From the IMG/VR virus record IMGVR_UViG_3300045010_000308, positions 9,057 through 73,056 of that record: a stretch of DNA of 64,000 bases. One strand, given 5' to 3'. The stretch's first letter is position 1. The number at the start of each line of letters is the position of its first letter. The notes beneath the pieces were generated by a model. The model saw only the letters and a program-made list of their open reading frames with translations. It was not told the DNA's origin and did no database searches. Shown here one piece after another: positions 11,203 through 35,159 of this stretch. The position numbers and the translations under genes were made by a program. The stretch is from a virus.

Positions 11203-11239
11203 TGGCACGCCTCGCATCGCCGTCAAGTGAGGTGGCGGA

Positions 11240-14111: not shown

Positions 14112-14613
14112 CGTGCTGGCGTGGGTGTCACGCGCGATCGCAGGCTGCCGGCGCACGGGGCCTGGCGCGCACGTCTTAGAGTTCGGCAGCCTAGACATCA
14201 ACGGCAGCGTCAGGCCGCTGTTCGCAGAGCTGGTGTCTGGCGGAGGTTCGTACCTCGGTATCGACGTGCAAGAAGGCCCGGGAGTCGACCTGGTGGCCGA
14301 CGCAAGCGCCTACAAGAGCGACACGCGGTGGGACTTCGTCGTCTGCTGCGAGGTGTTCGAGCATACGGCGCTGTGGCCGAAGCTCGTCGCTAACGCGCAC
14401 TCGCTCCTCGTGCCGGGCGGAGTCTTCATCGCGACGATGGCCGGCGAGGGCCGGCCGCCGCACTCTGCGATCGACGAAAACCCGATCCGCGCCTGGGAAT
14501 ACTACAAGAACGTGACCGGGCCGATGCTAGACGAGAAGCTCGCGTCGGCGGGATTCACGAGCCGCGAGGTCGACGTCTACCGCACCGACACGCGGTGCTG
14601 GGCGGTCAAGTAG
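14101..14613 (+). CDS. class I SAM-dependent methyltransferase
   Basis: VLEFGSLDING, YLGIDVQEGPGVD, WDFVVCCEVFEH, LVPGGVFI. Confidence 0.8.
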   Translation: MHGDVLAWVSRAIAGCRRTGPGAHVLEFGSLDINGSVRPLFAELVSGGGSYLGIDVQEGPGVDLVADASAYKSDTRWDFVVCCEVFEHTALWPKLVANAHSLLVPGGVFIATMAGEGRPPHSAIDENPIRAWEYYKNVTGPMLDEKLASAGFTSREVDVYRTDTRCWAVK

Positions 14614-15118
14614 CTTTTTTCTCGCGAAGCGCCTTCTTGAGCTTCTTGCGTTCTTTCGCTTCTCTTGCCGCGTGGTAGGCGTTGACGGCGTTCGCGCTCG
14701 TGCGACTTCTCCAGTGGAAGCCGCACTCTCCGCACGTCACGATCTTCGCGGTCGACCACCTGCCGCCGCCGGCAAGCTCCTGCTCGCTGACGCTGAGGCA
14801 CACCGGCCGCGCGCTGCAGTACGGGCACTGCGGCGACCGCCGCCTGCGGATCTCCTCTCCCGTGTGAGACACCGAGAGCGCCCTGCGGATGTCGTCTTCC
14901 GTGCGACCGCCCCAGACTCCCCAGAGCTGCTTCGTGTCGAGCGCCCACTTGAGGCACTCGTTCCTGACCTCGCAACCGAAGCAAAAGTTGCAGGCCCGGC
15001 GCTGCTCTAAGAGCTCAGGCGAGAAGAACAGCGGCTTCATCGACCGAGCCTCGTCGGTCTTCTGCGTGCAGCGCGCACGAGAGTGCCACGACACGTCGTC
15101 GAGCTCGAAGACGCTCAC
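14606..15118 (-). CDS. whiB: WhiB-family transcription factor with C-terminal zinc ribbon
   Basis: W..RARC..CFGCEVRNECL..WGVWGG (4 Cys plus G-V-W-G-G turn); extra CPYC..CGEC. Confidence 0.85.
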   Translation of the reverse strand: MSVFELDDVSWHSRARCTQKTDEARSMKPLFFSPELLEQRRACNFCFGCEVRNECLKWALDTKQLWGVWGGRTEDDIRRALSVSHTGEEIRRRRSPQCPYCSARPVCLSVSEQELAGGGRWSTAKIVTCGECGFHWRSRTSANAVNAYHAAREAKERKKLKKALREKKAT

Positions 15119-15121
15119 GGC

Positions 15122-15463
15122 CTAGAGCTCTACAAGCGTGACCGGGACGAGGTTTTCGACCTTGTCTCCGAGCGATGTCTCTCCTTTGTCGTTGCAGATC
15201 GCGTACTCGCCGTTGCCGTGTTCGTGAAGCTCGCCGGCGTACGACTGCGTGCATACCGCGGCTTCGACCGCCTTGAACCCCTCTCCCAGCGTGCTGACTA
15301 GCCCTTCCCGCTGGACGGTCGACGCCAGAGCCCTGCGGACTACCTCGTTCTCGATGTCGACGTGCTCGACGGTGAAGAACACGACCGAGTCGTGAGTCTC
15401 TCTCTCGTACAGCTCTCCGGTCCACTCGGACCAAAGAGATTCACCCCTGCGCGTGTCCTTCAC
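15122..15463 (-). CDS. hypothetical protein
   Basis: 113 aa; GTG start 6 nt downstream of TAGTAT; packed between the two whiB genes. Confidence 0.65.
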   Translation of the reverse strand: MKDTRRGESLWSEWTGELYERETHDSVVFFTVEHVDIENEVVRRALASTVQREGLVSTLGEGFKAVEAAVCTQSYAGELHEHGNGEYAICNDKGETSLGDKVENLVPVTLVEL

Positions 15464-15785
15464 GGCCCAATACTACCTCGCCCGCCAGCCTCGCGCGGCG
15501 TCTTGCTTTGTACTCGCGAGCGCGTATCCGCCTGCGCACCGACGCGTCGCCGGTCTGGTACCCGGCGTTGAACCGCTCTTCGTCGGTCTCTCCTCCCCAG
15601 ATGCCCATCTCGAGGTTCTTTCTTGCGTGCGCACGGCAGAGCTCGACCGACTTGCACCGAGCACAGATCGACTTTGCGACCTTCTCGCGCTTGGCCCTCG
15701 CTCCTGGTCGCTCGTAGAACGCGCCGTAGAAGTACTGTGTCTTTCCCTTGCACGCCGCGTCTTTCATCCACTCAAGGCCTCTCAT
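15441..15785 (-). CDS. whiB: WhiB-family transcription factor
   Basis: WMKDAACKG..AKSICARCKSVELC..MGIWGGET; AGGAGG SD. Confidence 0.88.
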   Translation of the reverse strand: MRGLEWMKDAACKGKTQYFYGAFYERPGARAKREKVAKSICARCKSVELCRAHARKNLEMGIWGGETDEERFNAGYQTGDASVRRRIRAREYKARRRARLAGEVVLGREGHAQG

Positions 15786-15862: not shown

Positions 15863-16375
15863 CTACGCGGCAAGAACGTAGCCGTCTTGGTGCGGCCACA
15901 CGTACTCGTAGGTGGCTGGAGCAGAGCCGCCGTCCTCGGCCCAGCGAAACTGCCTGTACCAGTCGTAGTGCTTGCAGAGCAGCGCCGTGCGGTGAGTCGA
16001 GCACAGGCGCTCGTAGTACTCGGCGTCGAGCATCCAGCTCGGCAGCGTGTACTCGGGAGAGATGCGGCCGAGGTCGACGGCGCGGTCGTATGTCGCGAAC
16101 ATCTTCTCGAGCAACGTCGACCTGTACCCGCGGCCGCGCCACTCGTAGTAGGTGGCCGTGAGGTACGCGAGCAGCACCGTCTCGTGGCCGCGCCACATGC
16201 GGACGACAGGGTGGTTGGCCCAGCCCTTGGTCGTCTTGTCGGTGCCGTCAGGGTTGAGGCCGGTCATCGTGAGCAGGCACTGCCAGCCCTCGAGCGTCTG
16301 CTTGTGCAGGCGCTTGTTGTCGAGGTGCCGAGCGGTAGTCGTGAATGAGGCGGTGTCGGTGAGGAATGTTTGCAT
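15863..16375 (-). CDS. pyrimidine-dimer DNA glycosylase-like (endonuclease V / MSMEG_6728-like) protein
   Basis: MQTFL..LDNKRLHKQTLEGWQ..GWANHPVVRMWRGHE..STHRTALLCK..YVWP. Confidence 0.75.
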   Translation of the reverse strand: MQTFLTDTASFTTTARHLDNKRLHKQTLEGWQCLLTMTGLNPDGTDKTTKGWANHPVVRMWRGHETVLLAYLTATYYEWRGRGYRSTLLEKMFATYDRAVDLGRISPEYTLPSWMLDAEYYERLCSTHRTALLCKHYDWYRQFRWAEDGGSAPATYEYVWPHQDGYVLAA

Positions 16376-16449: not shown

Positions 16450-17691
16450 TTATTTGCCGGCCATCTTCTGCTTGACATAGTGGCGGCTGAAGCCCTTGTC
16501 GGTGCGGTGCATCCACTCGTGGTCGCCGATCTTCTCCCCCGCCGGGCCGCTCTGCTCGCCGCTCAGGCACGCGTTGACGTGCTTGCCGATCCACTCGCCT
16601 GCCTGCACGGCGACGGCCTTTCCCCAGGTCGCCTTCATCATCGAGTAGTCTTGCGTCTCCTCGATGTTCCACCCGTCTGGCAGCCCCTGGATGCGCGCCG
16701 CCTCACGGTGCGTGATCAACCGCGGCTGCGTCGGGTGCACGACGTGCTGCAGCGCGGCTCCTGTCAAGACGCGGCACGGAGCCTCTCCGTCCCAGCGCCC
16801 GGCCTGCGAGTAGCCGAGGAGGAACTTGCGCCGCCTGATGTTCTTCTCTGAGCCGAGCCACGACTGCGGGAACTTGTTGTCATTGAGCCGGACGGCCTCT
16901 TTGAGCACGTCTTGCTGGATGTCGTTCGGCTTCCACCCTCCGTTGCCGACGATCGCGAAGATGTCTTCGATCTTAGCCTTTGAGCCGTCACTGACGCCGA
17001 TGTGGCCGTCGACCGTCGAGTTGCTCGACCGCAGCGCCTTGACGAACGAAGACGGCTTGCCTTTGATCTTCTGCGGTGACCACTGCAGCGGCAGGTTCTC
17101 GAGGTCGCCGATGACGTCCATGACGGTCGGAAACTTCGCCGGCTCGTTGACCTCGGCTCCGAACTTCATCCCGCGCCGGACAGCGACCCAGAAGTACCGC
17201 GGCCTGTACGAGAAGCCGCCAAGCTGCAGGTTGTTGTGCATCACGTGGTGCAGGTCGTATTTCTTGCCCGAGACGCCCTCGACCATGTCGCGGTACTTGA
17301 GCATGACCTCACGCCCGTCTGAGTACGCCTGCTGGACGCACTCGAACACGACGACAGAGGGCTTGATCGCGCCGGCGTAGCGCATGAAAGCTCGCGTGTG
17401 CTCGTGCGCCGGCGAGTCTGGGCCGCGCTGGTGCACAGACGACCACGTCGACCAGCCCGAGCACGGGGGGCAGCCGACGACTGCGTCTGCCTTGCGCCTC
17501 GGCCACTCTTCGACGTCGTCCGCGAAGCTTCCTTCCCACGAGGCGCCAAATCGCGCGCGGTTCGCCTCGACGACCGGCGCGCCGAAGTCCAGTGTCCCCG
17601 TCCTCGCGACCATCTCCATGCCTGACTTCACGAACCCGTAGCTCATGAACCCAGCGAGGCCGTTGCAGTCAATGAACGTGTGCTTTGCCAC
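16450..17691 (-). CDS. divergent C5-cytosine DNA methyltransferase-like protein
   Basis: Motif IV GCPPCSGWS, VI variant FECV, VIII SYRPRYF, IX THREAARIQGLPD, X variant WGKAV; motif I atypical (DCNGLAGF). Confidence 0.75.
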   Translation of the reverse strand: MAKHTFIDCNGLAGFMSYGFVKSGMEMVARTGTLDFGAPVVEANRARFGASWEGSFADDVEEWPRRKADAVVGCPPCSGWSTWSSVHQRGPDSPAHEHTRAFMRYAGAIKPSVVVFECVQQAYSDGREVMLKYRDMVEGVSGKKYDLHHVMHNNLQLGGFSYRPRYFWVAVRRGMKFGAEVNEPAKFPTVMDVIGDLENLPLQWSPQKIKGKPSSFVKALRSSNSTVDGHIGVSDGSKAKIEDIFAIVGNGGWKPNDIQQDVLKEAVRLNDNKFPQSWLGSEKNIRRRKFLLGYSQAGRWDGEAPCRVLTGAALQHVVHPTQPRLITHREAARIQGLPDGWNIEETQDYSMMKATWGKAVAVQAGEWIGKHVNACLSGEQSGPAGEKIGDHEWMHRTDKGFSRHYVKQKMAGK

Positions 17692-18198: not shown

Positions 18199-18617
18199 TA
18201 CTTGATCCTCTTTTCGAGCTTGTACGGCGAGTGGTGGGTCCCGTCTAGGAACGGGACCTTGTCGTCCGTCGAGCGAAAGATCACGTCGCCGTAGCGCACC
18301 GCGACGACCTTGCCGACGCGCCCGTTGTGCACGGTCCCGAGCCTGTCGGTGTACGCGTCGTGCTTGACGCGGACTATGTCTCCGACCGAGATGAACCCGG
18401 GGCGCGCCTCGACCCACACCGCGTCAGACTCGGCGGGGAGCAGCGAGTTTGTCAGCGCGAGCTTGCTGAACAAGTCAAGCACGTCTTTTGAGTCACGGTC
18501 ACTGTGCTTCGTCTCTTCCCACGCAGCAAGCAGGGCCATGACTGACGCGCCGACGGCTTTTTTCGTCTTGATGCTCGCTAACTGAGCGCTCGCCCAGTCG
18601 CGGTCAACATGCTTCAT
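18198..18617 (-). CDS. hypothetical protein with C-terminal SH3/KOW-like segment
   Basis: 139 aa from ATG 18617 after an AGGAG SD; ISVGDIVRVK..HNGRVGKVVAVRYGDV. Confidence 0.65.
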   Translation of the reverse strand: MKHVDRDWASAQLASIKTKKAVGASVMALLAAWEETKHSDRDSKDVLDLFSKLALTNSLLPAESDAVWVEARPGFISVGDIVRVKHDAYTDRLGTVHNGRVGKVVAVRYGDVIFRSTDDKVPFLDGTHHSPYKLEKRIK

Positions 18618-19086
18618 CTCTGCTCCTGTGAGGACACCGCGGCTCGCGGCAGTTGTCTGTGTCGTAGTCGTCGAGCGCACGGGCGCACACGATGCACTTC
18701 ATCCCGGCATCGAGCACGCGGTAGCCTCTCTGCTGGCGGTCTGCGTTTTTCTGCATCTTCGCCAGGTACTCTTCGTTCAACTCGGCGTCGGTCCCGCCGA
18801 CGGCGCAGATGATGTTTGCGACGAAGTGGAGGACATCGACGCACTCTTTCAGGACCTCTTTGCGGTCGACATACGGATCATCGCGCTGCCAGGGCTTCCA
18901 CGAGATCGCCCTGCGGACCTCGGCGAGCTCGTCGTCGATCGCGAGCATGTTCCAGCGCAGGTACTCGATGACGGCTCGAAGCGAGTCTGAGCCGTCGTCG
19001 TGGAAGGTAGAGTAGTCGACGCCGTAGCAGCTTTGCTGAAGCTGAGCCGTGGCCTCGAGCCACTTGCCGAAAAGCTTGTCAGTCAT
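18604..19086 (-). CDS. all-alpha dNTP pyrophosphatase (dimeric dUTPase / T4 gp56 dCTPase-like)
   Basis: DDELAEV..SWKPW..KECVDVLHFVAN..YLAKMQKNADRQ. Confidence 0.75.
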   Translation of the reverse strand: MTDKLFGKWLEATAQLQQSCYGVDYSTFHDDGSDSLRAVIEYLRWNMLAIDDELAEVRRAISWKPWQRDDPYVDRKEVLKECVDVLHFVANIICAVGGTDAELNEEYLAKMQKNADRQQRGYRVLDAGMKCIVCARALDDYDTDNCREPRCPHRSRDEAC

Positions 19087-20099
19087 CTTGAGTCGATCAC
19101 CTGTCGCAGTGTTGTCAGTACTTCTTCCCGCGTCTGGATCTTATCTAAGTATTGGCGCGACTGGCGCGCCGAAAGCTCGTAAGCGTCGAGCTCGCTCAGC
19201 TGCTCGACCCTCGCCGCGAGCACAGACCACGCGTCTCCGGCCTCGCGGCTGTACCGCCACTCTGTCACTATCGGAGTGCCGGCGCGCATCGACTTGACGA
19301 ACAGCGGAGACCACCAAGGGCGCTTGTCGTCGTGTATGGCCAGTATGACTCCGTGCAGAGACCCGATCCTTTCTTCGAGCTCGAGGTCGGTGGCGTACTT
19401 CTTGTCCTTGATCTCGCCGTGCGGAAGCTCGAGCGTCCTTGACAGCGACAAGGCCCACTTCGTCGACGGCACGTCTATCCCCCACGCGCGCGCTCTCTTT
19501 CCTCGCGGCGCGTCTGCTCCTGGTCGCCGCGCGTGCAGCGAGTCGAAAGACAGCCCGACGAGCGACGCTCGCATCGTCTCGCGCACTCCGATGATCTCTG
19601 CCGGGTTCGAGTACCACGGCAGTGTCGGCCAGACCGTCTTTGGCCAAGGCTTGTGCAGCAGGTGCAGCGCGCCGTCGAGGACTCGTGCGCTTATGGCGCC
19701 GTCTTGCGCAGCGAGCGTGTAGCCGATCCTGCGCGAGTAGAACGGCTTGAAGAGCTGCTTTGGCTTTCGCTCGATCGACCTCAGGCCGGCGAAGATCTTT
19801 CCTGGCTCTGGAGCGTCGACGAACAGCGCGAGTCGCGAGTCGTCTTTGAGCAGAGAGACTAGGTTGAGCGTGCCGTATGTGCCGTTGGCCGACACGCTGG
19901 TCGGCGTCAGCACGCCGGCGAAGACTTTGCCGTACCCGGCGAGGTCGCCGTGCGTCCACGCTGGGTCGGGCTCGACCTGCACGACCTCGTGCCCGAGCTC
20001 TTGAGTCGCCTCCGCGAGCATGCCGGAGTACGTCAATGTCCGCTGAGCCACGGCGCTCGAGTAGTGTTGCGCACTGGCGCCGGTGATCAAGACTTTCAT
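19083..20099 (-). CDS. putative GT-B glycosyltransferase-like protein (DNA-modifying candidate)
   Basis: 338 aa; MKVLITG..LAEATQELGHEV N-terminus and SMRAGTPIVTEW C-terminal lobe typical of GT-B folds; sits in the nucleotide-modification operon. Confidence 0.5.
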   Translation of the reverse strand: MKVLITGASAQHYSSAVAQRTLTYSGMLAEATQELGHEVVQVEPDPAWTHGDLAGYGKVFAGVLTPTSVSANGTYGTLNLVSLLKDDSRLALFVDAPEPGKIFAGLRSIERKPKQLFKPFYSRRIGYTLAAQDGAISARVLDGALHLLHKPWPKTVWPTLPWYSNPAEIIGVRETMRASLVGLSFDSLHARRPGADAPRGKRARAWGIDVPSTKWALSLSRTLELPHGEIKDKKYATDLELEERIGSLHGVILAIHDDKRPWWSPLFVKSMRAGTPIVTEWRYSREAGDAWSVLAARVEQLSELDAYELSARQSRQYLDKIQTREEVLTTLRQVIDSR

Positions 20100-20857
20100 C
20101 TAGCCGTTGCTTCTGTCGCTGCCTCGAACGCCGACGGGACTCCGACGTCCATCGCGTCCACGTCGAACAAGCTCGTCGGGTACCGCAGTATCTCCGTGAG
20201 GTACGGGCCGATCTTGAGCTCGGCGCCCTGCGAGCCGCGGCCGTCCCACTCGCGCGACAGCACGGCGATCGCGCGCTTCGTGTCCATGATCACCGGCCCG
20301 CACCACACTCGAGCCAGCGGCGCGTCGGCCCGGGGGTCGACGAAGTCTTCGTCACGCAGTTCAGTCCCTTCGGCGAACTCGTACTCGTGCTCTCGCGCGA
20401 TTCGATCAGACCAGGCCGACCGTATCCTCGTGAACCGCCCGGCCTGGCTCTTCGGGACCGTCCGCGCTCCGACGGCGTTCGCTTTCGCGATCTCTGTGCT
20501 GACGGCCATGCGGACCACTTTTTCGCGGTCCATGATGTTGTCGCTCATCAAGAGCATCACCGCCTTCGAGTTTTCAAGTGGTTTCAGGCCGACAAGAGCC
20601 GCGTGGCCGGGCCCGCAGGGGTCTTCTTGCACGACGACTTCGATCCACGACGAGTACGGCTCAAGCACCTTGTGCACCTGCGTGACGTTGTGCGGCGACG
20701 CGACCACGACCGTCTGCTCGGCGCCGGCCGCCGCGGCGTACTCGGCCGCGTACGCGAGCAGCGTGATCCCGTTGACCTCGAGCAGCGGCTTGAAGAACGG
20801 CATAGAGTAGCCGAGCATGCGCTGGCCGCGCCCCGCGGCGAGGATCACCGCGTCCAC
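20096..20857 (-). CDS. sugar-phosphate nucleotidyltransferase
   Basis: AVILAAGRGQRM..FKPLLEVNG..QEDPCGPGHA..LLMSDN..MDVGVP; start GTG 20857 after AGGAG. Confidence 0.82.
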   Translation of the reverse strand: MDAVILAAGRGQRMLGYSMPFFKPLLEVNGITLLAYAAEYAAAAGAEQTVVVASPHNVTQVHKVLEPYSSWIEVVVQEDPCGPGHAALVGLKPLENSKAVMLLMSDNIMDREKVVRMAVSTEIAKANAVGARTVPKSQAGRFTRIRSAWSDRIAREHEYEFAEGTELRDEDFVDPRADAPLARVWCGPVIMDTKRAIAVLSREWDGRGSQGAELKIGPYLTEILRYPTSLFDVDAMDVGVPSAFEAATEATAR

Positions 20858-21360
20858 GGCCACTCCTGGCGCGCCCACACGAACTTCCAGCCGGCCTCTC
20901 TCGCTGGCGCCTGCCCGTCGATCCTGTCGTCGATGTACACTCCCTCCGCCGCGACTCCCCTGAGGATCGCGGTGCGCTCGGCCGTCGACACGCTGCTTGC
21001 GAGAAGCGCGCTCGGCGTGAGCCTCAGCGCCTCGAGCACCGCCTCTGCCGCGTCTTTCGCGGCGCCTGTCACGTATGCGACGTCTCCGGGAAACATCGCC
21101 TCGAGCGACAGCAAGATGTCTGCGTACGGCAGCTTGTTCTCGAGCGCTGCGCCGGCTCTGATCACGTCGACGTACACGAGCGTCTTCTCGCTGTGCGCCT
21201 TCCTCGCGCTCTCGAGCGAGCCAGTCACAGACGGAAGCCACATCTGCCACGGGTGGCCCCAGGCCTCGTCTGGCATGTCGACACCGACACTCTTGTACGC
21301 CTTGCGCACGAGGTGCCTCGAGTTCACGAGGACGCCGTCGATGTCAGAGCACCACTTCAT
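20845..21360 (-). CDS. HAD-superfamily phosphatase
   Basis: SDIDGVL (DxD), YVTG, YIDD..AREAGW. Confidence 0.8.
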   Translation of the reverse strand: MKWCSDIDGVLVNSRHLVRKAYKSVGVDMPDEAWGHPWQMWLPSVTGSLESARKAHSEKTLVYVDVIRAGAALENKLPYADILLSLEAMFPGDVAYVTGAAKDAAEAVLEALRLTPSALLASSVSTAERTAILRGVAAEGVYIDDRIDGQAPAREAGWKFVWARQEWPWTR

Positions 21361-22135
21361 CGTAGAAACCTCCTGTCTTGAGCGTGTTGACGAGCACTTC
21401 CGCGACTCGATCTAGCGCGCTTGGAGCCTGGCGCACGACATACGGGAGCGCACGCACGACGTGGACGACCGCCCAGGCCTGGCCGCCAGAGAACAACGAG
21501 TCGTCGTCGACCGCAGCGCGCACGTCGGCGATCGAGTATGCCTTGCCTCCCGTGCCGTACTTCGCGGCCTCCCACCCGTTCGCGCTCTGCAGCATCTTGC
21601 CGACGTCGACGCACGGAGCGTCAGGGACCGTGATCGTCGCTGGGATCGGGTCGATCAGCACCGAGCCGTAGCCGCGCCTGCGCATCACGTTCTCGGCCGT
21701 CGCGTCTCCGTGAGTGAGAGCCGCCGCCCCGGCGAGCGCGGCACGGGCCGCTGACTCGGCGGCGAACAGCACGGCCGCGACAAGCTCGGAGCTGAAAGAC
21801 AGCCAGCACCTGCCGATGTTGTCGGACATCTTGCCGCGCAAAAGCTCGTACGTCTCGTCTCTCGCGGGGACATCGGCAGGCCTGCTCCAGACGTGCCTGC
21901 GCAGCAGGCCGACTACCTCTTCGGCCTTGACCTCGGCGTAGTCGACGTGCGCGAGCCGCTCCATGACGTAGCCGTCGCTCGTCAGCTCGAGCACCATCGG
22001 GAGCGCAGGAGACGCGTGCTCTTGGATCCAGCGGCCCTGCCCGATCGTCTTCTCGACGATCCCGCCTCGCTTGATGACCGTCACCGCGTCGTTGTCAACG
22101 ACCTCCGCACCGGACAGGCCGCTGTTGGCGATCAC
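21344..22135 (-). CDS. APH/choline-kinase-fold small-molecule (sugar) kinase
   Basis: GLSGA..VIKRG, YVMERL, THGDATAENVM, VLIDP, DVGKMLQS. Confidence 0.75.
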   Translation of the reverse strand: MIANSGLSGAEVVDNDAVTVIKRGGIVEKTIGQGRWIQEHASPALPMVLELTSDGYVMERLAHVDYAEVKAEEVVGLLRRHVWSRPADVPARDETYELLRGKMSDNIGRCWLSFSSELVAAVLFAAESAARAALAGAAALTHGDATAENVMRRRGYGSVLIDPIPATITVPDAPCVDVGKMLQSANGWEAAKYGTGGKAYSIADVRAAVDDDSLFSGGQAWAVVHVVRALPYVVRQAPSALDRVAEVLVNTLKTGGFYDEVVL

Positions 22136-23379
22136 GAGAATGCGCTCTCGATCATGACTTCAGCCGTCTTTCGCGGGTCGTTGCGCGTGCGCAAGACCTC
22201 GCGGTTGTGGCGCGCGATCTCGACCCGCTGGTTGTCTGGGATCTCGAGGCACGTCGAGAACGCGTCGGCGATCCTCTTGATCAACGCGAGGCCCTCGTCT
22301 TGCACGAGGCGCGACTGCGTCGGAGACTTCGTGAACCAGTCGAGCACCATCATGCGGAACGCTGGGTCTGACAGGTGGCCTGGGACGATGCACAGAGCGC
22401 CTGCGTCGGCGGCCTCGAGCGACGAGTACTCGACCAGGCCCCGCGCGAACGCGTGCGCGGTGAGGTTCATGTGCACGCGGAAGCGCGCCGCGATCGCCGC
22501 CGAGTCGGTGTAGTTGCCGAGGTAGCGGATGAGCGCTCTGCCGGCCACACGCGCGTCCCACGGGTACGGCGTGACGATGTTCCCGTCCATGCTTCCGTTG
22601 TACTTCTCCGGGTTGACATTCTTCGCGTACCTCACGGCTTGCGCCTTGAAGTGTTCTTTCAAAAGCTCGTACACGATGTACGTCGGCGACGGCCCGAGGC
22701 CGACCGAGCACGATCCCCAGATCTCCACCGTGACGTCTTCTGGCAAGAACGCGCCGGCGAGCGCGACGAGCGGCTGTCCCTTGTTGTAGATGAACCTGCC
22801 TGACGTGCCGACGACGCGGCTGTCTGTGATCGGCGCGTCGACCTCGAACTTCGGGATGTAAGGCATCGGGCCTTTGATCCACTCCATCTTCGCGAACATG
22901 TCGTTGCTGTGCCTCGCGGACTCGTCGCTCATCGTCACGAGCTTGCTTCCTCGCGACGGCGACTCGAGCAGCTTGCCGACGAACGGGATGTCTTTCTCCG
23001 GGTAAAACGAGCCGTGGAGCGCCGTGGTCCAGCGTGTCCGAGTGCGGAGCAGAGCGTCTACGTACTCTGGCAACGCGCCTTCGCCTTTCTTGATCGCCTG
23101 CTTGTCGTGCAGCGGCACCTTGATCTCTGGCAAGACGACCATGTCGTACTTGTCGAACGTCTCGACGAGGTGCGCGGTCTTCACGACGACGTCTGGCGCC
23201 TCGCTCCACCACCGCCCGCCCGGGCGAGGCTGGCCCCACGACGTTCGAGCCTTGCCACTCTTCGTGAACGACACGACATCGCAGCTATGCCCAAGCTGCT
23301 GGAACCCGTACCGAAGCCGGAATCCCCACGCGGTGGGTCCCTTGACTCCTGGCTCTGGCTCGAATACCGCGACTTTCAT
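22132..23379 (-). CDS. GT-B glycosyltransferase (GT4-like)
   Basis: MKVAVFEP..GFQQLGHSCDVV; SGRFIYNKG; EYSSLEAADAGA acidic motif; ARHNREVL C-terminal helix. Confidence 0.7.
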   Translation of the reverse strand: MKVAVFEPEPGVKGPTAWGFRLRYGFQQLGHSCDVVSFTKSGKARTSWGQPRPGGRWWSEAPDVVVKTAHLVETFDKYDMVVLPEIKVPLHDKQAIKKGEGALPEYVDALLRTRTRWTTALHGSFYPEKDIPFVGKLLESPSRGSKLVTMSDESARHSNDMFAKMEWIKGPMPYIPKFEVDAPITDSRVVGTSGRFIYNKGQPLVALAGAFLPEDVTVEIWGSCSVGLGPSPTYIVYELLKEHFKAQAVRYAKNVNPEKYNGSMDGNIVTPYPWDARVAGRALIRYLGNYTDSAAIAARFRVHMNLTAHAFARGLVEYSSLEAADAGALCIVPGHLSDPAFRMMVLDWFTKSPTQSRLVQDEGLALIKRIADAFSTCLEIPDNQRVEIARHNREVLRTRNDPRKTAEVMIESAFS

Positions 23380-28196: not shown

Positions 28197-30020
28197 TCAC
28201 CGCTTGTACTTGTCTCCCCACGTCTCGAGTGGGCCGTCTATCCCGGCGGTCAGCGGCACGTTCCAGCCGTCGGTGGTCGTCATGCACTCTTTGACGGTGC
28301 GCATGATCTCTTGGACGTCGCCGCGCGGCGCGTTGAGCACGATCTCGTCGTGCACGGGGACGATGAGCAGCTCGGTGAGGTCGGCTTGGTCGAGCTTGAC
28401 GAGGTTGGCCTTGAACACCTCTGCCGCGCCTCCCTGGATCAAGTAGTTGACCAGCGTGTACACGCGGTCTTCGTCGCACGGCAGGCGGCGGCCAGTCCAC
28501 GTGTAGACGTAGCCTTGCCCCTCTTCGCGGACACGGCGCATCCCCGCGTCTTCGATCTTGCGCTGGAACTCGACCATTCCTGGGTACCGGCCGTCGAACG
28601 CGTCTGACACGACACGCATCTGCGGCTCGGCGACTCCGGCCGTCAGCGCCTGCTTCGCGACACCGGCGCCGTACAGCCGCCCGTAGACCGTGCCCTTGAT
28701 GAGCGCGCGGCGCTTGTCTGACTTCTGCATCGTCGGGTCTTTGTAGATCTCACGGCCGATCTCGGTGAACGGATCTGAGCCGGTCGCGTCCGCGCGGCTG
28801 AACAGCGCGACGAGGTTGGGGTCGTTCGACATGCTGGCGAACATGCGGAACTCGACCTGGTCGAGGTCCGACGTGACAATCACGTGGTCGTCGTCTTTGG
28901 GCAAGAACGCGCGGCGCACGACGTCGTCGCCTTTCGGCAGCGTCTGAAGCGCGGGATTCTGGATCGACATGCGGCTCGTGCGCGCACCGAGCGTCTTGAC
29001 CGACGGGTGGACGAAGCCGTCGACGTTGTCGTTGATGAAGTTCGAGAAGTACGTGTTCGCGAGCTTGTCGGCCTTGCGTTGCTTGAGGACCGTGTCGGCG
29101 AGGTTCGACACCTCTTCAGCCCCGTTGATCTTGAGCAGCTGAAGCTGGTCTTTCGTGCACGACTTCTGCCCCGTCGGCGTGAACTCGGTGATCTCGGCGC
29201 CGAGGTCCTCGAACAACCGGACGAGCTGCTGGTTGCTGGTGATCGACACGCCGGCGTACCTAGCTTTCGCCCACTCTTTGACCGACGACGTGTACGCGGT
29301 CAGCTCGTCAAACTTCTTCTTCGAGTACTCTAGGTCGACGCGCGCTCCGTTGATCTCCATGCGTGTCACGATCTTGCGCGCCGCCATCTCGAGCTCGTAC
29401 GCGCGGCTGTATTGCTTGCCTGGGCCGCATTTTTCGTAGAACATCTCCCAGAGGCGCATCGTCAAGACCGTGTCGAGCGCGCCGTAGGACCAATACGGCG
29501 AGAAGCCGACCGGGACGGTGCCCCAAGTCCAGCCGTTCTTAGCCAGCTCGACGTCGAGCGTGTCTTGCAGCGCGACCGCGCGCCCGTCGACGTGCAGCGC
29601 CGCGAGGCGCTTGAGAGCGCCTGACCCGAGGGGGTCGATGATGTGCGCCATGATCATCGTGTCGTGCGCACGCCCCCACGGCAGGCTCCACCGCGACTGC
29701 ACGTCGAACCAGCGAGCCTCGAACGCGATGTTGTGGCACACGACCGGCCCGTCGAACTTGTCCATCGCCTCGTAGAACACGCCTGACCACTCCTGCCACG
29801 GGATCGCCCAGCCTCGCTGGGCGTCACCGACCTGCACGAGGCGCAACCGGCCGTGCCACGGCGACAGCGCGTGCTCTCTTGGAGCGCCTGGCAGCTCTCC
29901 GGTCTCTGTGTCGACCGCGATCGCGCCGTGCGGCCGGCGCTCGCTCAGCCACGCGATGAACTGCGACGCCTTCTCGGCCGAGTCGACGAGCGAAAGCTCT
30001 ACGCCCGACAGGTCAGCCAT
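28197..30020 (-). CDS. polA: family A DNA polymerase with 3'-5' exonuclease domain
   Basis: AVDTETG, HNIAFE, YGALD; RTSRMSIQNPALQ, DLDQVEFR (motif A), R..IKGTVYG.LYG (motif B), VHDEI (motif C). Confidence 0.93.
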   Translation of the reverse strand: MADLSGVELSLVDSAEKASQFIAWLSERRPHGAIAVDTETGELPGAPREHALSPWHGRLRLVQVGDAQRGWAIPWQEWSGVFYEAMDKFDGPVVCHNIAFEARWFDVQSRWSLPWGRAHDTMIMAHIIDPLGSGALKRLAALHVDGRAVALQDTLDVELAKNGWTWGTVPVGFSPYWSYGALDTVLTMRLWEMFYEKCGPGKQYSRAYELEMAARKIVTRMEINGARVDLEYSKKKFDELTAYTSSVKEWAKARYAGVSITSNQQLVRLFEDLGAEITEFTPTGQKSCTKDQLQLLKINGAEEVSNLADTVLKQRKADKLANTYFSNFINDNVDGFVHPSVKTLGARTSRMSIQNPALQTLPKGDDVVRRAFLPKDDDHVIVTSDLDQVEFRMFASMSNDPNLVALFSRADATGSDPFTEIGREIYKDPTMQKSDKRRALIKGTVYGRLYGAGVAKQALTAGVAEPQMRVVSDAFDGRYPGMVEFQRKIEDAGMRRVREEGQGYVYTWTGRRLPCDEDRVYTLVNYLIQGGAAEVFKANLVKLDQADLTELLIVPVHDEIVLNAPRGDVQEIMRTVKECMTTTDGWNVPLTAGIDGPLETWGDKYKR

Positions 30021-30498
30021 CGGAATCTCTCTCAGGCACGGCGCTGACTCGCATCCCGCACTTCTCGAGGTACGCGACCACCTCGTGCGGGTTGCGGTGC
30101 GTGTCTGACCCGCGGACGACCATGACGACGCGCGCTACTCCGGAGTTCGAGACCAGCTTCGCGCACTGCATGCACACCGCGCTCGTGACGTACAGCGTCC
30201 CGCCTTCGACCTGCGACCTGTCGACGTACAGCAGCGCGTTGGCCTCCGCGTGGATCGCCGGGCACGCGTCGTACACGTTGTCGAGCGGGGCCTCTCCCCT
30301 CGCTCGCGGGCACCACAGCCCGCACTCGCCGCCTTCAGGCCACGTCGCGGCCGGCCCGTTGTACCCAGTCGCGCAGATGCGCTGGTTGCGAGAGACGACG
30401 GCGGCTCCGACCCGCGCCCGTGAGCAGCGAGACCGCCGCGCCACGGCGCGAGCCACCGCGAGCCACGTGTCGTCCCACGAGGGGCGGTCAGCTCGCAT
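30013..30498 (-). CDS. dCMP deaminase-like protein
   Basis: Start ATG 30498: RPSWDD, RSRCSRARVGA, TGYNG, HAEANAL, VCMQC. Confidence 0.87.
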   Translation of the reverse strand: MRADRPSWDDTWLAVARAVARRSRCSRARVGAAVVSRNQRICATGYNGPAATWPEGGECGLWCPRARGEAPLDNVYDACPAIHAEANALLYVDRSQVEGGTLYVTSAVCMQCAKLVSNSGVARVVMVVRGSDTHRNPHEVVAYLEKCGMRVSAVPERDSDG

Positions 30499-31345
30499 TT
30501 GCCGCGTTTTTTGCGATCGCGCTGCGCATGGCCGACGCGTACCACTTGTCTTCGGCCGGAAGCGCGTCGAACACGGCGGCGTCGTGCGCGGCGTCGAGGC
30601 ACCGGACGGCCCGCGCTCGGACCGCGCTCCATGACGAGCCGACGAGGACCGGGACTGGCTTAGCGGGCTCTTTCGTGTAGGCCAGATTTTCCGCGGCGGC
30701 GAAGTCCGCCTCGTAGACATGCAACGAACCGACGTGGTGGCCGTAGGTCCCCGGCTCGACTCCGAGGATAGACGCGACCGCGATCTGCACGCGTGTGAAC
30801 TGGAAGAAGTCATACGCGGCTCCGAGCCAGACGTCGTTCGAGCGCATGTACACGCTCATGTTGAGCCTGTTCTTGCGGACGCGGAACTGGTGCAGGATCG
30901 TGCACGGGTAGTCGCGCTTCTTCTCGAGCATGTCTCGCTCTGGGTCCCAGATCGTGACTACCGCCTGCCGCGACTCCGGGTCTTTCTTGAGGCGGTCGAT
31001 CATGACCGAGTATTGGCCGTCTGTGCGTGTCCCGTACGACCCGTGGAACTGCCCGTCGTCTTCGGTGTAGTTCGCGAACTGAGGCCCGATGGCGATGACG
31101 GTCTCTGGGCGCGACACGCCGCCGAGCAGCTGGCACGCCTCGACTGCGCCGATGCCTGCGACGACGTTGCGGCCGACGCCGACAGGCAGCGTGTTGTACA
31201 CGTCGTCGATGTAGATGACGGCGTCTTCTATCTCGCGGGTCTGCATGCCGCGTGGCGCCGCCTTCTCACCATGCACGAGGACGTGCCTCACGAGGTCGAC
31301 GTAGCCGTTGACTCCGTCTTGGATCGAGACTACCTTAGTATCCAC
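30488..31345 (-). CDS. thymidylate synthase-fold enzyme of the dCMP-specific type (dCMP hydroxymethylase/hydroxylase-like)
   Basis: YGTR, SRQAV, catalytic DYPCT, MRSNDVWLGAAYD with Asp where dUMP-specific ThyA has Asn, SLHVY. Confidence 0.8.
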   Translation of the reverse strand: MDTKVVSIQDGVNGYVDLVRHVLVHGEKAAPRGMQTREIEDAVIYIDDVYNTLPVGVGRNVVAGIGAVEACQLLGGVSRPETVIAIGPQFANYTEDDGQFHGSYGTRTDGQYSVMIDRLKKDPESRQAVVTIWDPERDMLEKKRDYPCTILHQFRVRKNRLNMSVYMRSNDVWLGAAYDFFQFTRVQIAVASILGVEPGTYGHHVGSLHVYEADFAAAENLAYTKEPAKPVPVLVGSSWSAVRARAVRCLDAAHDAAVFDALPAEDKWYASAMRSAIAKNAANAS

Positions 31346-32340
31346 TTGTCATTCTCCTCTTCTCCCCCCCACGAAAGCCTCTCGATCGCGCGACCGTACT
31401 CCTGCCCGTCGTGGTGGTGAAACCTGCGGACATACTGCGGGTGCGGGACCACGCTGACGTGGCTTCGTGGTATCTCGTCGCAGAGGCCTGCTATGCTTTT
31501 TTCGGCCATGCGCCCGAGAGCGACGACTGGCGGCCTGCCGAGGACGACCCAAAGCGTGCCGAGCATCGAGCTGCACAGCTCAGTTCCGTTGACGATCCCG
31601 ACGGACTTCCAAAACGGGTCTGGCAGGTTAGACAACAGGTAGTCGCCAGAGTTGCCTTTGGCGGGGTAGAAGGGCAAGATCGGCCCGCTGGGGTCGTTTC
31701 GCTTGTCACCGACTAGCAGCACGCGAGGCCGCGGTGAGCCGATGTACATCGGGAACTGAGCGACCGCTCTCGCGAGGTAGTCACGCTCGCGCGCAATCGC
31801 GAGCATGCGCTCTGCCAGCGCAGGCAGCGCGCTCATGTCGTCTGGGTCAGGCGTCAGCACCTCGACGCGAGCCGCTTTCGCGATCCCGCTCATGTACAGC
31901 GCGTGTATCCGCGCGAGCTCGCCGACCTCGACGAAGCCGTCGCCGCGCGCTTCGACGCGGCGCGCTAGAACGCCTGGAGGCTGCATCAAGGCGAACTGCA
32001 CGGCGCCGCGCGACAGCAGCATCAGCTCGACAAGCCGCCAGCCGCCGACCCCGAGCAGGCCGTACTCGTCTGAGCACGTGTGCGGGCGCTTGAGCGGCGC
32101 GTACGTCACCTCGCCCCAGTGCCACCTGTCTGCGATGACGACGTAGCCGTCCGTCCAGTTGACATTTTCGACCGACGCGGCCCACTGGTTCAGCACCCAC
32201 GAGCGAGACTCTTCCTCTGGCTTGCCCATGTGGTAGTGCACGACCTCGCGCTCTGGGTACTTGACCGACGCCTCGTCCAAGAGCGCGTCGACAAGTGAGC
32301 TTTTGCCTGAGCCGTCTGGGCCTTCTACAATGATGAACAT
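31330..32340 (-). CDS. dNMP (thymidylate-type) kinase fused to a UDG-superfamily-like domain
   Basis: IIVEGPDGSGKS, IADRWHWGE.TY; C-terminal VLLVGD..SGDYL..VVALGRMA..PHPQY. Confidence 0.72.
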   Translation of the reverse strand: MFIIVEGPDGSGKSSLVDALLDEASVKYPEREVVHYHMGKPEEESRSWVLNQWAASVENVNWTDGYVVIADRWHWGEVTYAPLKRPHTCSDEYGLLGVGGWRLVELMLLSRGAVQFALMQPPGVLARRVEARGDGFVEVGELARIHALYMSGIAKAARVEVLTPDPDDMSALPALAERMLAIARERDYLARAVAQFPMYIGSPRPRVLLVGDKRNDPSGPILPFYPAKGNSGDYLLSNLPDPFWKSVGIVNGTELCSSMLGTLWVVLGRPPVVALGRMAEKSIAGLCDEIPRSHVSVVPHPQYVRRFHHHDGQEYGRAIERLSWGGEEENDKWILR

Positions 32341-32379
32341 GCGCTGTCTTTCGTCTCTAGCTGTGGCTTGAATATCGTA

Positions 32380-32856
32380 CTACGGAATAAGCTCGACTTT
32401 GTAGACCATCTCGATCCCCTTGTCGACCTGCGCCGCCTCCTCGAGCAGCCGCTGCGCGACGTGCGTCAGGTACTTTGCGCCGCTCGCGTCGTACTTGTAG
32501 AGCGCGTCGAGGACGGCGCTCGGCTCCTCACTGACCTGCGCCCAGTAGCGGTTTTTCTCCGGAAAGATCACCGGCGCGTTGAGCGACGAGCGGCACTCTG
32601 GGCAAGAGACCAGCCGTGACGGAGACTCAAGAGACGAGACACTAACCTCGCTGAGGCCGTACCGCTGGACGAGGTGGCAGGCGGCCGTGTGGTAGATCAC
32701 CGACACGCCGACGCGAGACAAGACGTAAGAGCCGCTCTCAGTGCGGTAGAGCTCGAACTCGATCCAGCGGTTTGCGCCCGGGCGGCTCGACGAGGAGCGA
32801 CCGAGCAGCTTGCCGCTGAACTGCAACGTTCGTGAGCCGTCTTTCACCTGGATCAT
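32380..32856 (-). CDS. hypothetical protein
   Basis: 158 aa with coding-like composition; H..C and CPEC suggest a metal site; TGATACTGT promoter-like motif upstream (32895-32903). Confidence 0.65.
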   Translation of the reverse strand: MIQVKDGSRTLQFSGKLLGRSSSSRPGANRWIEFELYRTESGSYVLSRVGVSVIYHTAACHLVQRYGLSEVSVSSLESPSRLVSCPECRSSLNAPVIFPEKNRYWAQVSEEPSAVLDALYKYDASGAKYLTHVAQRLLEEAAQVDKGIEMVYKVELIP

Positions 32857-32900
32857 GCTGGTCTTTTCTCTATGCGTACAGAACTTACTGCTCTACAGTA

Positions 32901-33080
32901 TCACTTTTCAGCCCGCTTGAGTCGCTCGGCCAGTTCTTTGTTCTTTTCTTGCTCGCGCAAGAGCAGAGCCTCGAGCTCGGTGTTCACGCTCATCATCCGA
33001 TGAAGCTGGCTTCTCGTGATCGAGAGCACCTTGTTGAGGAAGTCTGGGTCGGTCTCAAGCGTGTTTTCGTTGTTGTCCAT
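32901..33080 (-). CDS. small coiled-coil hypothetical protein (59 aa, not in ORF track)
   Basis: MDNNENTLETDPDFLNKVLSITRSQLHRMMSVNTELEALLLREQEKNKELAERLKRAEK; TGGTATGTT 8 nt upstream. Confidence 0.6.
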   Translation of the reverse strand: MDNNENTLETDPDFLNKVLSITRSQLHRMMSVNTELEALLLREQEKNKELAERLKRAEK

Positions 33081-33128: not shown

Positions 33129-35159
33129 CTAGCCTTCTTCGAGCGCTTTCAGCCGCGTGTTGAGGTCGCGAACCGCCGAGATCAGGACCGGGACCATCGA
33201 CGTGTAGTCGACGGCCTGGTACTGCGCCCTGCGCCAGACGCCTTCCTCCGTGAACGTGTAGTCACTGTCGGCTCCAAAGGTGACCATCTCTTCTTCCGTG
33301 AACCCGCCTGGGTGCTCGTCGTACCGATAGCACAGGCCTTCTTCGGTCGCCTCTCCGCGTATGGCGTACGGGAACGCCGAAGCGACCTCGTCGGCGATGA
33401 CTCCGACGCCGTATCGGCCGCGCACGGACTCCGGCGCGGTGTCGTTGTACCGAAAGGTGTACGCCCGAGTGCCGTACAAGTTGTCGAGCATCTCTCTTCC
33501 GACCTCGACTACGTCTTCTTTGAGGCGCCTGTCCGACGGGTTCGTCCACGGCACGAAGCCCCGGATCCCCACGTTGTTGTCGACGCACATCACGAGTTGG
33601 CCGCCAGAGAAGCCGCCAACCGGTCCGTTGAGGTAGTTCCAGGAGATGCCCCAGCGCTGGCCTAGGTACACCGGCAAGTTCGGCGTCTCGTACCGCACTC
33701 CCCGAGTAATGAAGGTCGTGGGGCCTACCTGAACCCTGAATATGTCACTCGCGAACTCGATTGCGTTCGGAGCGCTAGCGAGCATGTACCCTGCGCCGAC
33801 AGAGAGCAGCTGCAGCGGGCTCGCGCCGAGTGAGATGATGTCGTTTCCGATGTAGACCTGCGGGTATGCGGAGGCGCTCGAGTCGGCCGACGCCCCGTGG
33901 TGCATGACCAGCCCGTACCCGACGCCCTCGACTGTCAGCGGCGTGATGTGCGCGACGCTCGTCGAGTTCACCTGGAACGACAACGCGTTCGTCGAAGAGC
34001 TCAAGATGACTCGGTTCCCCTCCGACGCGGTCTGCACCGTGCGGCCTGTCAACGTGCCTGACGTGATGTTGTCAGCGTTGATCGTCCCGGCGTAGACGAC
34101 AGATGCGCTCAGCGTGCCTGCTGTGATGTTCCCCGCTGCGACCGTCCCGGCGTAGACGACAGCCGCGCCGAGCGTGCCCGCCGTGATCTTCGAGGCGTCG
34201 ATCACGCCGGCGGCGATGCTCGACGCGATGATGCGCGAAGAGGCGATCGTGCCCGCGGTGATGTTGCCGGCGTCGATGTTCGAGACGGTGATGACACTCG
34301 CGTCGATCGTCCCGGCCGTGATCTTGTTCGCGCTGAGGCTCTGGATCGCGTTGTTCCCGAGGTTGTTCGCGACCCACGACGAGCCGTTCCAGCGGTAGAT
34401 CCTGTTGTCGTCGTCTGTGTCAAACCAGAGGTCGCCGATGGCCGACGCGGTCGGAGCCGACGGCTGCCGGAACACCCTGTTCTTCCCGTCCGCCGTCGTC
34501 TGCGCGGCCGTCGCGGCAGCCTGAGCTACAGAGATCGTGAAATCGCGCACCGACACCCACGACGAGCCGTCCCAGCGCTTGAGGTTGTTGGAGTCTGACG
34601 TGTCGATCCAGAAGTCGCCGGAATCCGGGTTCGCAGGCGCCGTGGGAGACACGCTGCTGTCGATGCCGCCAAGCTCGTCTTGCGCGGCCTCGTCGATGAT
34701 CTCGATCGTGACGGCTCCCGGGGCGAGGATCTCCGTCGTCACCGAGTCCGGTGCGAGGATCTCCGTCGTCACCGAGTCAGGCGCGAGGATCTCTGTCGTC
34801 ACCGAGTCCGGCGCGAGGATCTCTGTCGTCACCGAGTCCGGCGCGAGGATCGCCGTCGTCACCGAGTCAGGAGCGAGGATCTCCGTTGTCACCGAGTCAG
34901 GCGCGAGGATCTGTGTCGTCACCGAGTCCGGTGCGAGGATCTCCGTCGTCACCGAGTCAGGCGCGAGGATCTGTGTCGTCACCGAGTCCGGAGCCAGCTC
35001 GACCGTCGTGATCGCGTTGACGTCGATGATCGCGGTGGTCACAGTCCTCTCCCCGATGCGGCGCGGCGCGGGCCTGCGTGACATGCGCTTGGTGCGCCTG
35101 TCGATCCTGCTGACGTAGTTGCTCAGCCTGCGCAGCGCGCGGCGACGGCTGCTAGCCAC
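33129..35159 (-). CDS. tail fibre with C-terminal intramolecular chaperone (peptidase S74-like) domain
   Basis: APDSVTTEIL repeats, GDLWFDTDD, AxxITAGT repeats, PSDRRLKE cleavage-site motif, VDYTSMVPVLISAVRDL. Confidence 0.82.
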   Translation of the reverse strand: MASSRRRALRRLSNYVSRIDRRTKRMSRRPAPRRIGERTVTTAIIDVNAITTVELAPDSVTTQILAPDSVTTEILAPDSVTTQILAPDSVTTEILAPDSVTTAILAPDSVTTEILAPDSVTTEILAPDSVTTEILAPDSVTTEILAPGAVTIEIIDEAAQDELGGIDSSVSPTAPANPDSGDFWIDTSDSNNLKRWDGSSWVSVRDFTISVAQAAATAAQTTADGKNRVFRQPSAPTASAIGDLWFDTDDDNRIYRWNGSSWVANNLGNNAIQSLSANKITAGTIDASVITVSNIDAGNITAGTIASSRIIASSIAAGVIDASKITAGTLGAAVVYAGTVAAGNITAGTLSASVVYAGTINADNITSGTLTGRTVQTASEGNRVILSSSTNALSFQVNSTSVAHITPLTVEGVGYGLVMHHGASADSSASAYPQVYIGNDIISLGASPLQLLSVGAGYMLASAPNAIEFASDIFRVQVGPTTFITRGVRYETPNLPVYLGQRWGISWNYLNGPVGGFSGGQLVMCVDNNVGIRGFVPWTNPSDRRLKEDVVEVGREMLDNLYGTRAYTFRYNDTAPESVRGRYGVGVIADEVASAFPYAIRGEATEEGLCYRYDEHPGGFTEEEMVTFGADSDYTFTEEGVWRRAQYQAVDYTSMVPVLISAVRDLNTRLKALEEG
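34723..34994. repeat. 30-bp tandem repeat x9 (APDSVTT[E/Q/A]IL)
   Basis: ACCGAGTC recurs every 30 nt from 34741 to 34981. Confidence 0.92.

Follow-up and report, generated by a model that had tools for sequence, protein, structure and literature searches.

A 64,000-nucleotide (nt) stretch of DNA from an uncultured actinobacterial phage (positions 9,057 to 73,056 of the IMG/VR record IMGVR_UViG_3300045010_000308; hereafter the window) encodes a homologue of thymidylate synthase (TS) that, judged from its sequence, is very probably a deoxycytidine monophosphate (dCMP) hydroxymethylase of the T4 gp42 type. The gene belongs to a set of four minus-strand genes that overlap end to end and encode a P-loop kinase, the TS homologue, a dCMP deaminase, and a family A DNA polymerase (PolA). 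Taken as a whole, a T4-like dCMP hydroxymethylase working beside a deaminase in its ordinary role is the reading that we consider probable. The gp56-like, kinase, GT-B glycosyltransferase, and nucleotidylyltransferase genes of the window together point to glycosylated 5-hydroxymethylcytosine (5hmC) in the phage DNA. The source record of 73 kb was rated 55% complete by CheckV, and the G+C content of the window is about 64%.

The TS homologue of 285 amino acids (aa), the TS-fold dCMP hydroxymethylase candidate, is encoded at 30488..31345 (-) with a GTG start, and its gene overlaps the stop of the kinase gene by 16 nt. Its TGA stop occupies 30490-30488. The 161-aa dCMP deaminase (30013..30498 (-)) starts from the ATG at 30498-30496, within the last 11 nt of the TS gene; the original prediction of a deaminase gene overlapping the TS stop was thus correct, with an overlap of 11 nt. 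The version of the deaminase in the open reading frame (ORF) list, 30013-30813, uses an upstream ATG that is not used by the homologues. PolA (28197..30020 (-); PF00476, E 8e-53) comes next after the deaminase in the same overlapping operon, and its ATG is 8 nt inside the deaminase gene. Directly upstream of the TS gene is a deoxynucleoside monophosphate (dNMP) kinase fused to a domain with the fold of uracil-DNA glycosylase (UDG), at 31330..32340 (-).

We performed a pattern scan of viral contigs that returned 109 relatives, of which the best 80, with 61-87% identity to the window TS, were kept. The gene order kinase-TS-deaminase-PolA was retained wherever the contig reaches, with the four genes found in 79, 80, 78, and 77 of the 80 loci, respectively. 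Both loci lacking the deaminase are on contigs that end just past the TS gene. The same order was also observed in Actinomycetia phage DSL-LC01 and, with small ORFs interspersed, in Gordonia phage Phendrix. A megablast search of 29000-33000 against the phage collection gave no match, and the relatives were reached by protein-level searches.

The TS homologue matches Pfam family PF00303 (E 8.7e-25). Its best solved relative is MilA, a cytidine monophosphate (CMP) 5-hydroxymethylase (5b6d; E 8.6e-24, 87 bits, residues 18-243), and a BLASTP comparison with T4 gp42 gave E 2e-11 and 29% identity over 126 aligned columns. To read the active site, we compared the signature positions in one alignment with enzymes of known product, using E. 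coli numbering; MilA was compared via its HMMER alignment. The catalytic nucleophile is Cys148 (codon 30902..30904 (-)), which corresponds to E. coli C146 and T4 C148 and forms an invariant alignment column. Residues 168-179 read RSNDVWLGAAYD, and the Asp codon that the original prediction had placed at 30809-30811 in this segment was confirmed: it is the GAC codon of Asp179 (30809..30811 (-)), in the column of E. coli ThyA N177 and T4 gp42 D179, where the residue is predicted to select cytosine. Asp145 (codon 30911..30913 (-)), within KRDYPCT at residues 143-149, takes the position of E. coli L143, and Asp171 (codon 30833..30835 (-)) corresponds to E. coli D169 and is kept as Asp. The pair that forms the deoxyribose pocket, Ser169 and Arg126, which corresponds to S169 and R123' of T4, is also present.

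At E. coli positions 143/146/169/177, the pattern is D/C/D/D in the window TS, in its homologues in DSL-LC01 and Phendrix, and also in T4 gp42, which makes 5-hydroxymethyl-dCMP (5hm-dCMP). Enzymes that make thymidine monophosphate (dTMP) have L/C/D/N (E. coli ThyA and RB69 td); SPO1 gp29, a hydroxymethylase of deoxyuridine monophosphate (dUMP) that makes 5-hydroxymethyl-dUMP (5hm-dUMP), reads D/C/D/N; and the RB69 homologue shown to make 5-hydroxy-dCMP reads E/C/N/D. According to passages of PMC13326640, N177D selects dCMP, L143D or L143E accompanies hydroxymethyl products, and D169N is the mark of 5-hydroxy-dCMP synthases. The ribose preference of MilA rests on Ala176 and Lys133, positions at which deoxyribose enzymes carry Ser and Arg, and the MilA double mutant with the Ser/Arg pair prefers dCMP, as given in part of PMC5175136. 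Together, the D/C/D/D pattern and the Ser/Arg pair predict an enzyme that takes in dCMP and releases 5hm-dCMP, in agreement with the original identification of a dCMP-type TS homologue from the Asp at the N177 site, which is now joined by the catalytic Cys and the deoxyribose pair. CMP as the substrate was rejected because of Ser169/Arg126, where MilA has Ala/Lys.

The possibility that the protein is a working thymidylate synthase in which the Asp is tolerated is extremely remote. The public records of the DSL-LC01 and Gordonia-phage versions do label the gene "thymidylate synthase", and the NCBIfam thymidylate-synthase models give partial matches, but all of these matches fall far under the curated cut-offs (the best at 83.5 bits vs 174.55). 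The canonical ThyA marks Asn177, Leu143, and His147 are replaced in the window TS by Asp, Asp, and Thr; Thr occupies position 147 in all alignments, and no Trp occurs in the column of Trp80. Four active-site positions differ from ThyA in the way that they do in cytosine hydroxymethylases.

The Asp-type TS is widely distributed and its active site is highly conserved. Asp143, Cys146, Thr147, Ser167, Asp169, Asp177, Arg126, His207, and Tyr209 (E. coli numbering) were kept in all 80 loci. An HMMER search of 1.84 billion cluster representatives produced 481 matches at E <=1e-30, and among the best 150, which were analysed (35-62% identity), Asp177, Cys146, and Asp169 were found in every one, Asp143 in 146, and Ser167 in 147; the combination D/C/S/D/D at positions 143/146/167/169/177 was complete in 145. 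Named relatives include DSL-LC01 (61% identity) and the Gordonia phages Phendrix, GodonK, GMA2, and their kin (about 37-38%), and Micrococcus phage Kurnik also encodes a gp42-like TS. In a quick tree of 33 rows, made of 8 references and every sixth representative if longer than 240 aa, the Asp-type rows were separate from E. coli ThyA, RB69 td, and SPO1 gp29 with an SH-aLRT value of just 88; T4 and RB69 sat on very long branches, and no order of descent was drawn. Five distant Asp-type homologues of 414-452 aa (P0096, P0102, P0124, P0158, and P0165) carry a C-terminal Endonuclease VII domain and are probably homing-endonuclease fusions. Neither the TS nor the deaminase is mentioned in passages of the papers describing DSL-LC01 and GMA2, and the literature covered, with subscription journals outside that coverage, yielded no paper that deals with base modification in this phage group.

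The conservation of these positions bears on two other products that the TS homologue might make from dCMP. A dCMP methylase is known from Xanthomonas phage XP12, and the window enzyme might likewise methylate dCMP, with 5-methylcytosine entering the DNA or with the deaminase making dTMP from 5-methyl-dCMP; the latter case would amount to a thymidylate route needing neither ThyA nor ThyX. We consider this very unlikely. The group has no other thymidylate synthase, and a passage of PMC8670742 cites N177D alone as turning a true TS into a dCMP methylase, which would both fit a methylase; however, Asp143, present in 80/80 loci and 146/150 representatives, matches the hydroxymethylases T4 gp42 and SPO1 gp29, both methyl-forming synthases that were checked have Leu143, the Trp80 and His147 of ThyA are not kept, and a glycosyltransferase would find no hydroxyl to act on. 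The other product is 5-hydroxy-dCMP, made by a flavin-dependent synthase of the RB69 gp48 type at the start of ether-linked sugars. Such a synthase would share with the window TS the Asp177 and the acidic residue at 143, and its clusters in RB69 and DLP3, as presented in parts of PMC13326640, combine a sugar nucleotidylyltransferase with GT-B transferases as the window does. The D169N mark is nevertheless absent: the residue is Asp in the window, in 80/80 loci, and in 150/150 representatives, and the RB69 5-hydroxy-dCMP synthase has Asn. The hint at O2 and 5-hydroxy-dCMP in the original prediction was therefore not borne out, and a synthase of this type appears very improbable.

The second enzyme of the pair, the deaminase, is by its sequence a typical dCMP deaminase. 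It matches PF00383 (E 5.2e-18, 65.3 bits vs a Pfam cut-off of 25), and among solved structures T4 cd (1vq2), human DCTD (2w4l), and the S. mutans enzyme (2hvv) match it best, all at E of about 1e-14. The HAE zinc motif is at 30244-30252 (-), residues 83-85, and is present in 77 of the 78 deaminases of the relatives. The second zinc motif, VCMQC at 30163..30177 (-), lies within AVCMQCA, with CMQC at residues 109-112. A VCxxC motif had been seen before and taken as a mark of altered specificity; the motif is real, but the position before the first Cys of CxxC varies among the 78 relatives (Ala 35, Pro 32, Val 4, Ser 4, Cys 2, Ile 1) and is Pro in DSL-LC01 and Leu in Phendrix, so this use of it did not hold. 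Deaminase homologues occur in 976 phage records, 484 of which are Mycobacterium phages. Mycobacterium phage JewelBug and Streptomyces phage Ejemplo encode deaminases that are 45-50% identical, together with ThyX and no ThyA-fold gene, and in these phages the deaminase can only feed dUMP to ThyX. The deaminase of Kurnik is 53% identical, and this phage has the Asp-type TS and no ThyX.

Gene-context analysis identified further parts of a T4-like pathway in the window. A 160-aa homologue of T4 gp56, the enzyme that hydrolyses deoxycytidine triphosphate (dCTP) and deoxyuridine triphosphate (dUTP), is encoded at 18604..19086 (-) (PF08761, E 5.8e-11); in the T4 genome it matches gene 56 only (BLASTP, 27% identity, 118 columns, E 1e-10). 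The kinase fusion was modelled with AlphaFold2 (AF2) at a predicted local distance difference test score (pLDDT) of 92.5. Residues 1 to about 190 superpose on YorR of SPbeta (2axp, Z 17.7) and on dTMP kinases (Z about 14), and the P-loop kinase is likely a 5hm-dCMP kinase. Residues 190-329 superpose on family 4/5 UDG and UdgX (6ail, Z 11.5; 1l9g, Z 11.2; 2d3y, Z 11.0). The first motif of this UDG-fold domain reads GDKRN, where the usual motif is GEAPG, and HPQ is kept; in 30 homologues, Gly211, Asp212, Arg214, Asn215, Pro223, Phe224, and His300-Pro-Gln show no or almost no variation. A similar domain is present in the structure of a family A polymerase 'with modified template' (9qhs).

The candidate DNA glycosyltransferase is a 415-aa GT-B protein resembling glycosyltransferase family 4 (GT4), encoded at 22132..23379 (-). 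No Pfam match was found for it at E 0.01, and a sequence search of the PDB gave nothing useful. Its AF2 model (pLDDT 93.6) placed T4 alpha-glucosyltransferase (AGT; 1y8z) on top of the Foldseek matches at E 1.8e-11, tied with HepE. The model superposes on AGT along its full length: in the VIA comparison, AGT scored Z 24.6 vs 25.8 for the best GT4 enzyme, with a root-mean-square deviation to AGT of 3.4-3.5 over 331-337 residues. The ESM Atlas names the clusters nearest to this protein DNA alpha-glucosyltransferase (PF11440), which we treat as a lead only. When a profile built from 45 homologues of the transferase was used as the query, T4 and DSL-LC01 gave no match and Phendrix gave a single weak one.

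Genes for sugar activation may accompany the transferase. A 384-aa sugar-1-phosphate nucleotidylyltransferase at 20096..21250 (-) (PF12804, E 1.3e-14; PF00483, E 1.3e-9), with matches of the GlmU/RmlA type, possibly makes the sugar donor. The adjacent 338-aa protein at 19083..20099 (-) could be a second GT-B transferase, as a lead only: an Atlas structure search gave a TM score of about 0.6 to GT4 clusters with a low-confidence model (pLDDT 0.51), and no Pfam, PHROG, or PDB sequence match was found. A weak APH-like kinase adjoins the neighbourhood of the 415-aa transferase, and the APH family includes some sugar 1-kinases; a PDB sequence search with the APH-like kinase gave nothing useful. The uridine diphosphate (UDP)-galactose mutase of DSL-LC01 (OQ999401) is listed as a host-metabolism gene in a part of PMC10611076, and a passage of PMC13326640 proposes that in Rhizobium phage RL38JI an enzyme of this kind provides the sugar with which DNA is glycosylated.

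The window also carries a gene with the C5 cytosine DNA methylase fold at 16450-17691 (-) (PF00145, E 7e-20). Its motif is a divergent PPCSGWS vs PPCQGFS in the aligned solved methylase 3g7u, and FECV is present at a site where C5 methylases usually read ENV; the reaction may differ from the usual one. In a metavirome study, MetaGPA, contigs selected for modified cytosine carried most of the TS genes with Asp177, and TS and dCMP-deaminase domains co-occurred, often only on such contigs, as stated in sections of PMC8670742. The genes of the window form the T4 parts list (gp56, gp42, gp1, cd, and glucosyltransferase), built from distant or unrelated proteins.

From gene order, conserved motifs, folds, and homologies, we infer the following chemical steps and the final state of the DNA. 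The gp56-like enzyme would hydrolyse dCTP and so supply dCMP. Cys148 of the hydroxymethylase would attack C6 of dCMP, with methylene-tetrahydrofolate giving the carbon, while Asp179 would read the N3/N4 edge of cytosine. Asp145, which replaces the water-excluding Leu143 of ThyA, would let water hydrate the exocyclic methylene and yield 5hm-dCMP. This product would then be phosphorylated by the upstream kinase and incorporated as the modified nucleotide by PolA, encoded two genes downstream of the TS. The GT-B transferase would add to 5hmC in the DNA a sugar that the phage nucleotidylyltransferase possibly activates. The deaminase would act as T4 cd does, turning part of the dCMP pool into dUMP for dTMP synthesis, and the synthase for this last step must be that of the host because the phage group encodes none.

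Several observations weigh against a T4-like hydroxymethylase with an ordinary deaminase. The rules for L143D and D169 are correlations from a handful of tested enzymes. Ordinary GT4 enzymes score like AGT, and a GT-B fold match does not single out a DNA acceptor. If all cytosines were replaced, the C5 methylase-fold gene would be left without a substrate in the phage DNA. The remaining points concern the deaminase. The 73-kb record contains one PF00303 match and no ThyX, in keeping with the earlier observation that no canonical ThyA or ThyX was visible; all five relatives checked at 89-100% completeness have a single PF00303 gene of the Asp type and no ThyX, and the same holds for DSL-LC01 and Phendrix. 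Overall, another ThyA and a ThyX were both absent from six relatives with completeness of at least 90% and from one with 89%. The group is therefore without a dUMP-using synthase, and the product of the deaminase is without a phage-encoded consumer. Finally, human DCTD is reported in a review to deaminate 5hm-dCMP to 5hm-dUMP, which suggests that the dCMP deaminase family can accept a modified substrate.

These last points favour a reading in which the deaminase also or mainly converts 5hm-dCMP to 5hm-dUMP, with the modified base at T positions or at both C and T. Every locus that reaches past the TS (78/78) retains the deaminase beside the only TS-fold enzyme, yet no dUMP-using enzyme is encoded in the complete relatives checked, and for this reason a deamination of 5hm-dCMP is conceivable. 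In addition, the adjacent kinase bears a domain with the UDG fold, which is made for the recognition of uracil-type bases, and if 5hm-dUMP were made this domain might sort or sense the uracil-type product. On the other hand, T4 encodes gp42 and cd in one genome, and its DNA carries 5hmC and not 5-hydroxymethyluracil; T4 cd is activated by 5-hydroxymethyl-dCTP (5hm-dCTP). The VCxxC argument fails with the variability of that position, and deaminases of 45-50% identity serve ThyX phages that lack a ThyA-fold gene. The gp56-like dCTPase and the AGT-like transferase fit a replacement of cytosine, and a host ThyA or ThyX can consume dUMP, so that delivery of the dUMP to the host synthase is the simplest reading. 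We therefore judge conversion to 5hm-dUMP unlikely. The more specific claim that 5hm-dCMP is a real substrate of the deaminase, that a single hydroxymethylase supplies both 5hm-dCTP and 5-hydroxymethyl-dUTP, and that the virion DNA is modified at C and T seems quite unlikely.

The arrangement of the TS and deaminase genes was also compared among relatives. The 13 longest of the 150 representatives contained no TS-deaminase fusion, which also speaks against the conversion to 5hm-dUMP: five were the TS-Endonuclease VII proteins and eight were TS only. Fusion as a sign of coupling was accordingly rejected for these 13. At the TS-deaminase junction of the 78 relatives, about 5 overlap, 1 has a 5-nt gap, 64 have a spacer of 158-256 nt, and 8 have about 1.2 kb, with distances that use tblastn-derived starts and are accurate to a few nt. 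The tight overlap in the window is a local feature, not a general one. The spacer of one locus (L016) holds a 61-aa ORF (10863-11048), and the insert of about 1.2 kb in another (L025) holds an 83-aa ORF and a 347-aa ORF (10849-11892), the start of which resembles a family 2 glycosyltransferase, as judged by eye.

Other genes of the window were also recorded. Upstream of the kinase, a 158-aa gene at 32380-32856 (-) is conserved in 76 of the 80 loci; it belongs to no Pfam or PHROG family, and its one match, to the EXLDI family (E 0.0043), is weak and below threshold. A 676-aa protein at 33129-35159 (-), which has about 10 tandem units of 10 residues (APDSVTTEIL-like) near its N-terminus and adjoins tail genes, is probably a fibre. 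A pyrimidine-dimer glycosylase of the T4 endonuclease V type is encoded at 15863-16375 (-) (PF03013, E 1.3e-14), and two WhiB-like regulators are encoded at 14606-15118 (-) and 15441-15785 (-). Two ORFs are very long: 55107-63821 (-), of 2904 aa, and 49711-54018 (-), of 1435 aa.

If the T4-like reading is true, these actinophages of fresh water and soil, a large and widespread group, build their DNA with 5hmC, probably coated with sugar, as T4 does. The group extends to at least 109 viral contigs, to Gordonia and Micrococcus phages, and to 481 cluster representatives at E <=1e-30, and the public "thymidylate synthase" labels of these genes would be wrong. Such a modification would bear on the evasion of restriction and CRISPR in actinobacteria, on how these phages are sequenced and cloned, and on the mining of new DNA glycosyltransferases. 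If the deaminase were to take 5hm-dCMP, this would be a new route to hydroxymethyluracil. The specificity rules used here are already published and T4-like cytosine modification is known; the phage group in which it is predicted here has been little studied.

The closest known system is the 5hmC pathway of T4, which is textbook knowledge and in which gp42 works with gp56, gp1, cd, and the alpha- and beta-glucosyltransferases. T4 gp42 and the window TS share the TS fold and are identical at E. coli positions 143, 146, 147, 166-169, 177, 207, and 209, and their catalytic Cys and specificity Asp even have the same numbers, 148 and 179. Further components of the T4 pathway also have counterparts in the window: the gp56 homologue, the dNMP kinase, the deaminase resembling cd, and the GT-B transferase. 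Unlike gp42, the window TS has a C-terminal extension of about 50 residues, and Arg127 is replaced by Gln in the window group (80/80 loci). The window kinase, unlike that of T4, carries a fused UDG-fold domain; T4 encodes td itself, whereas the window phage group is without a td-type thymidylate synthase; and the host of the window phage is actinobacterial, with the genes in one overlapping operon with PolA.

The window proteins were also compared with other characterized enzymes. MilA of Streptomyces rimofaciens (5b6d and 5jnh) also has Asp at 143 and 177 and Thr after the catalytic Cys, but it carries Ala176/Lys133 for ribose where the window TS carries Ser169/Arg126 as deoxyribose enzymes do, and it serves antibiotic synthesis whereas the window TS sits in a phage replication operon. 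The 5-hydroxy-dCMP synthases RB69 gp48 and DLP3 gp80 are similar in the TS fold, Asp177, the acidic residue at 143, and the neighbouring sugar-activation and glycosyltransferase genes, and they differ in having Asn at 169 where the window TS has Asp. T4 cd, human DCTD, and ComEB, a class that acts on dCMP under allosteric control by dCTP-type nucleotides and dTTP, have the zinc motifs HAE and CxxC as well as the GYNG loop in common with the window deaminase. In contrast to these enzymes, the window deaminase has Val and not Pro before CxxC, at a freely varying position, and operates without a phage-encoded thymidylate synthase downstream of it in metabolism.

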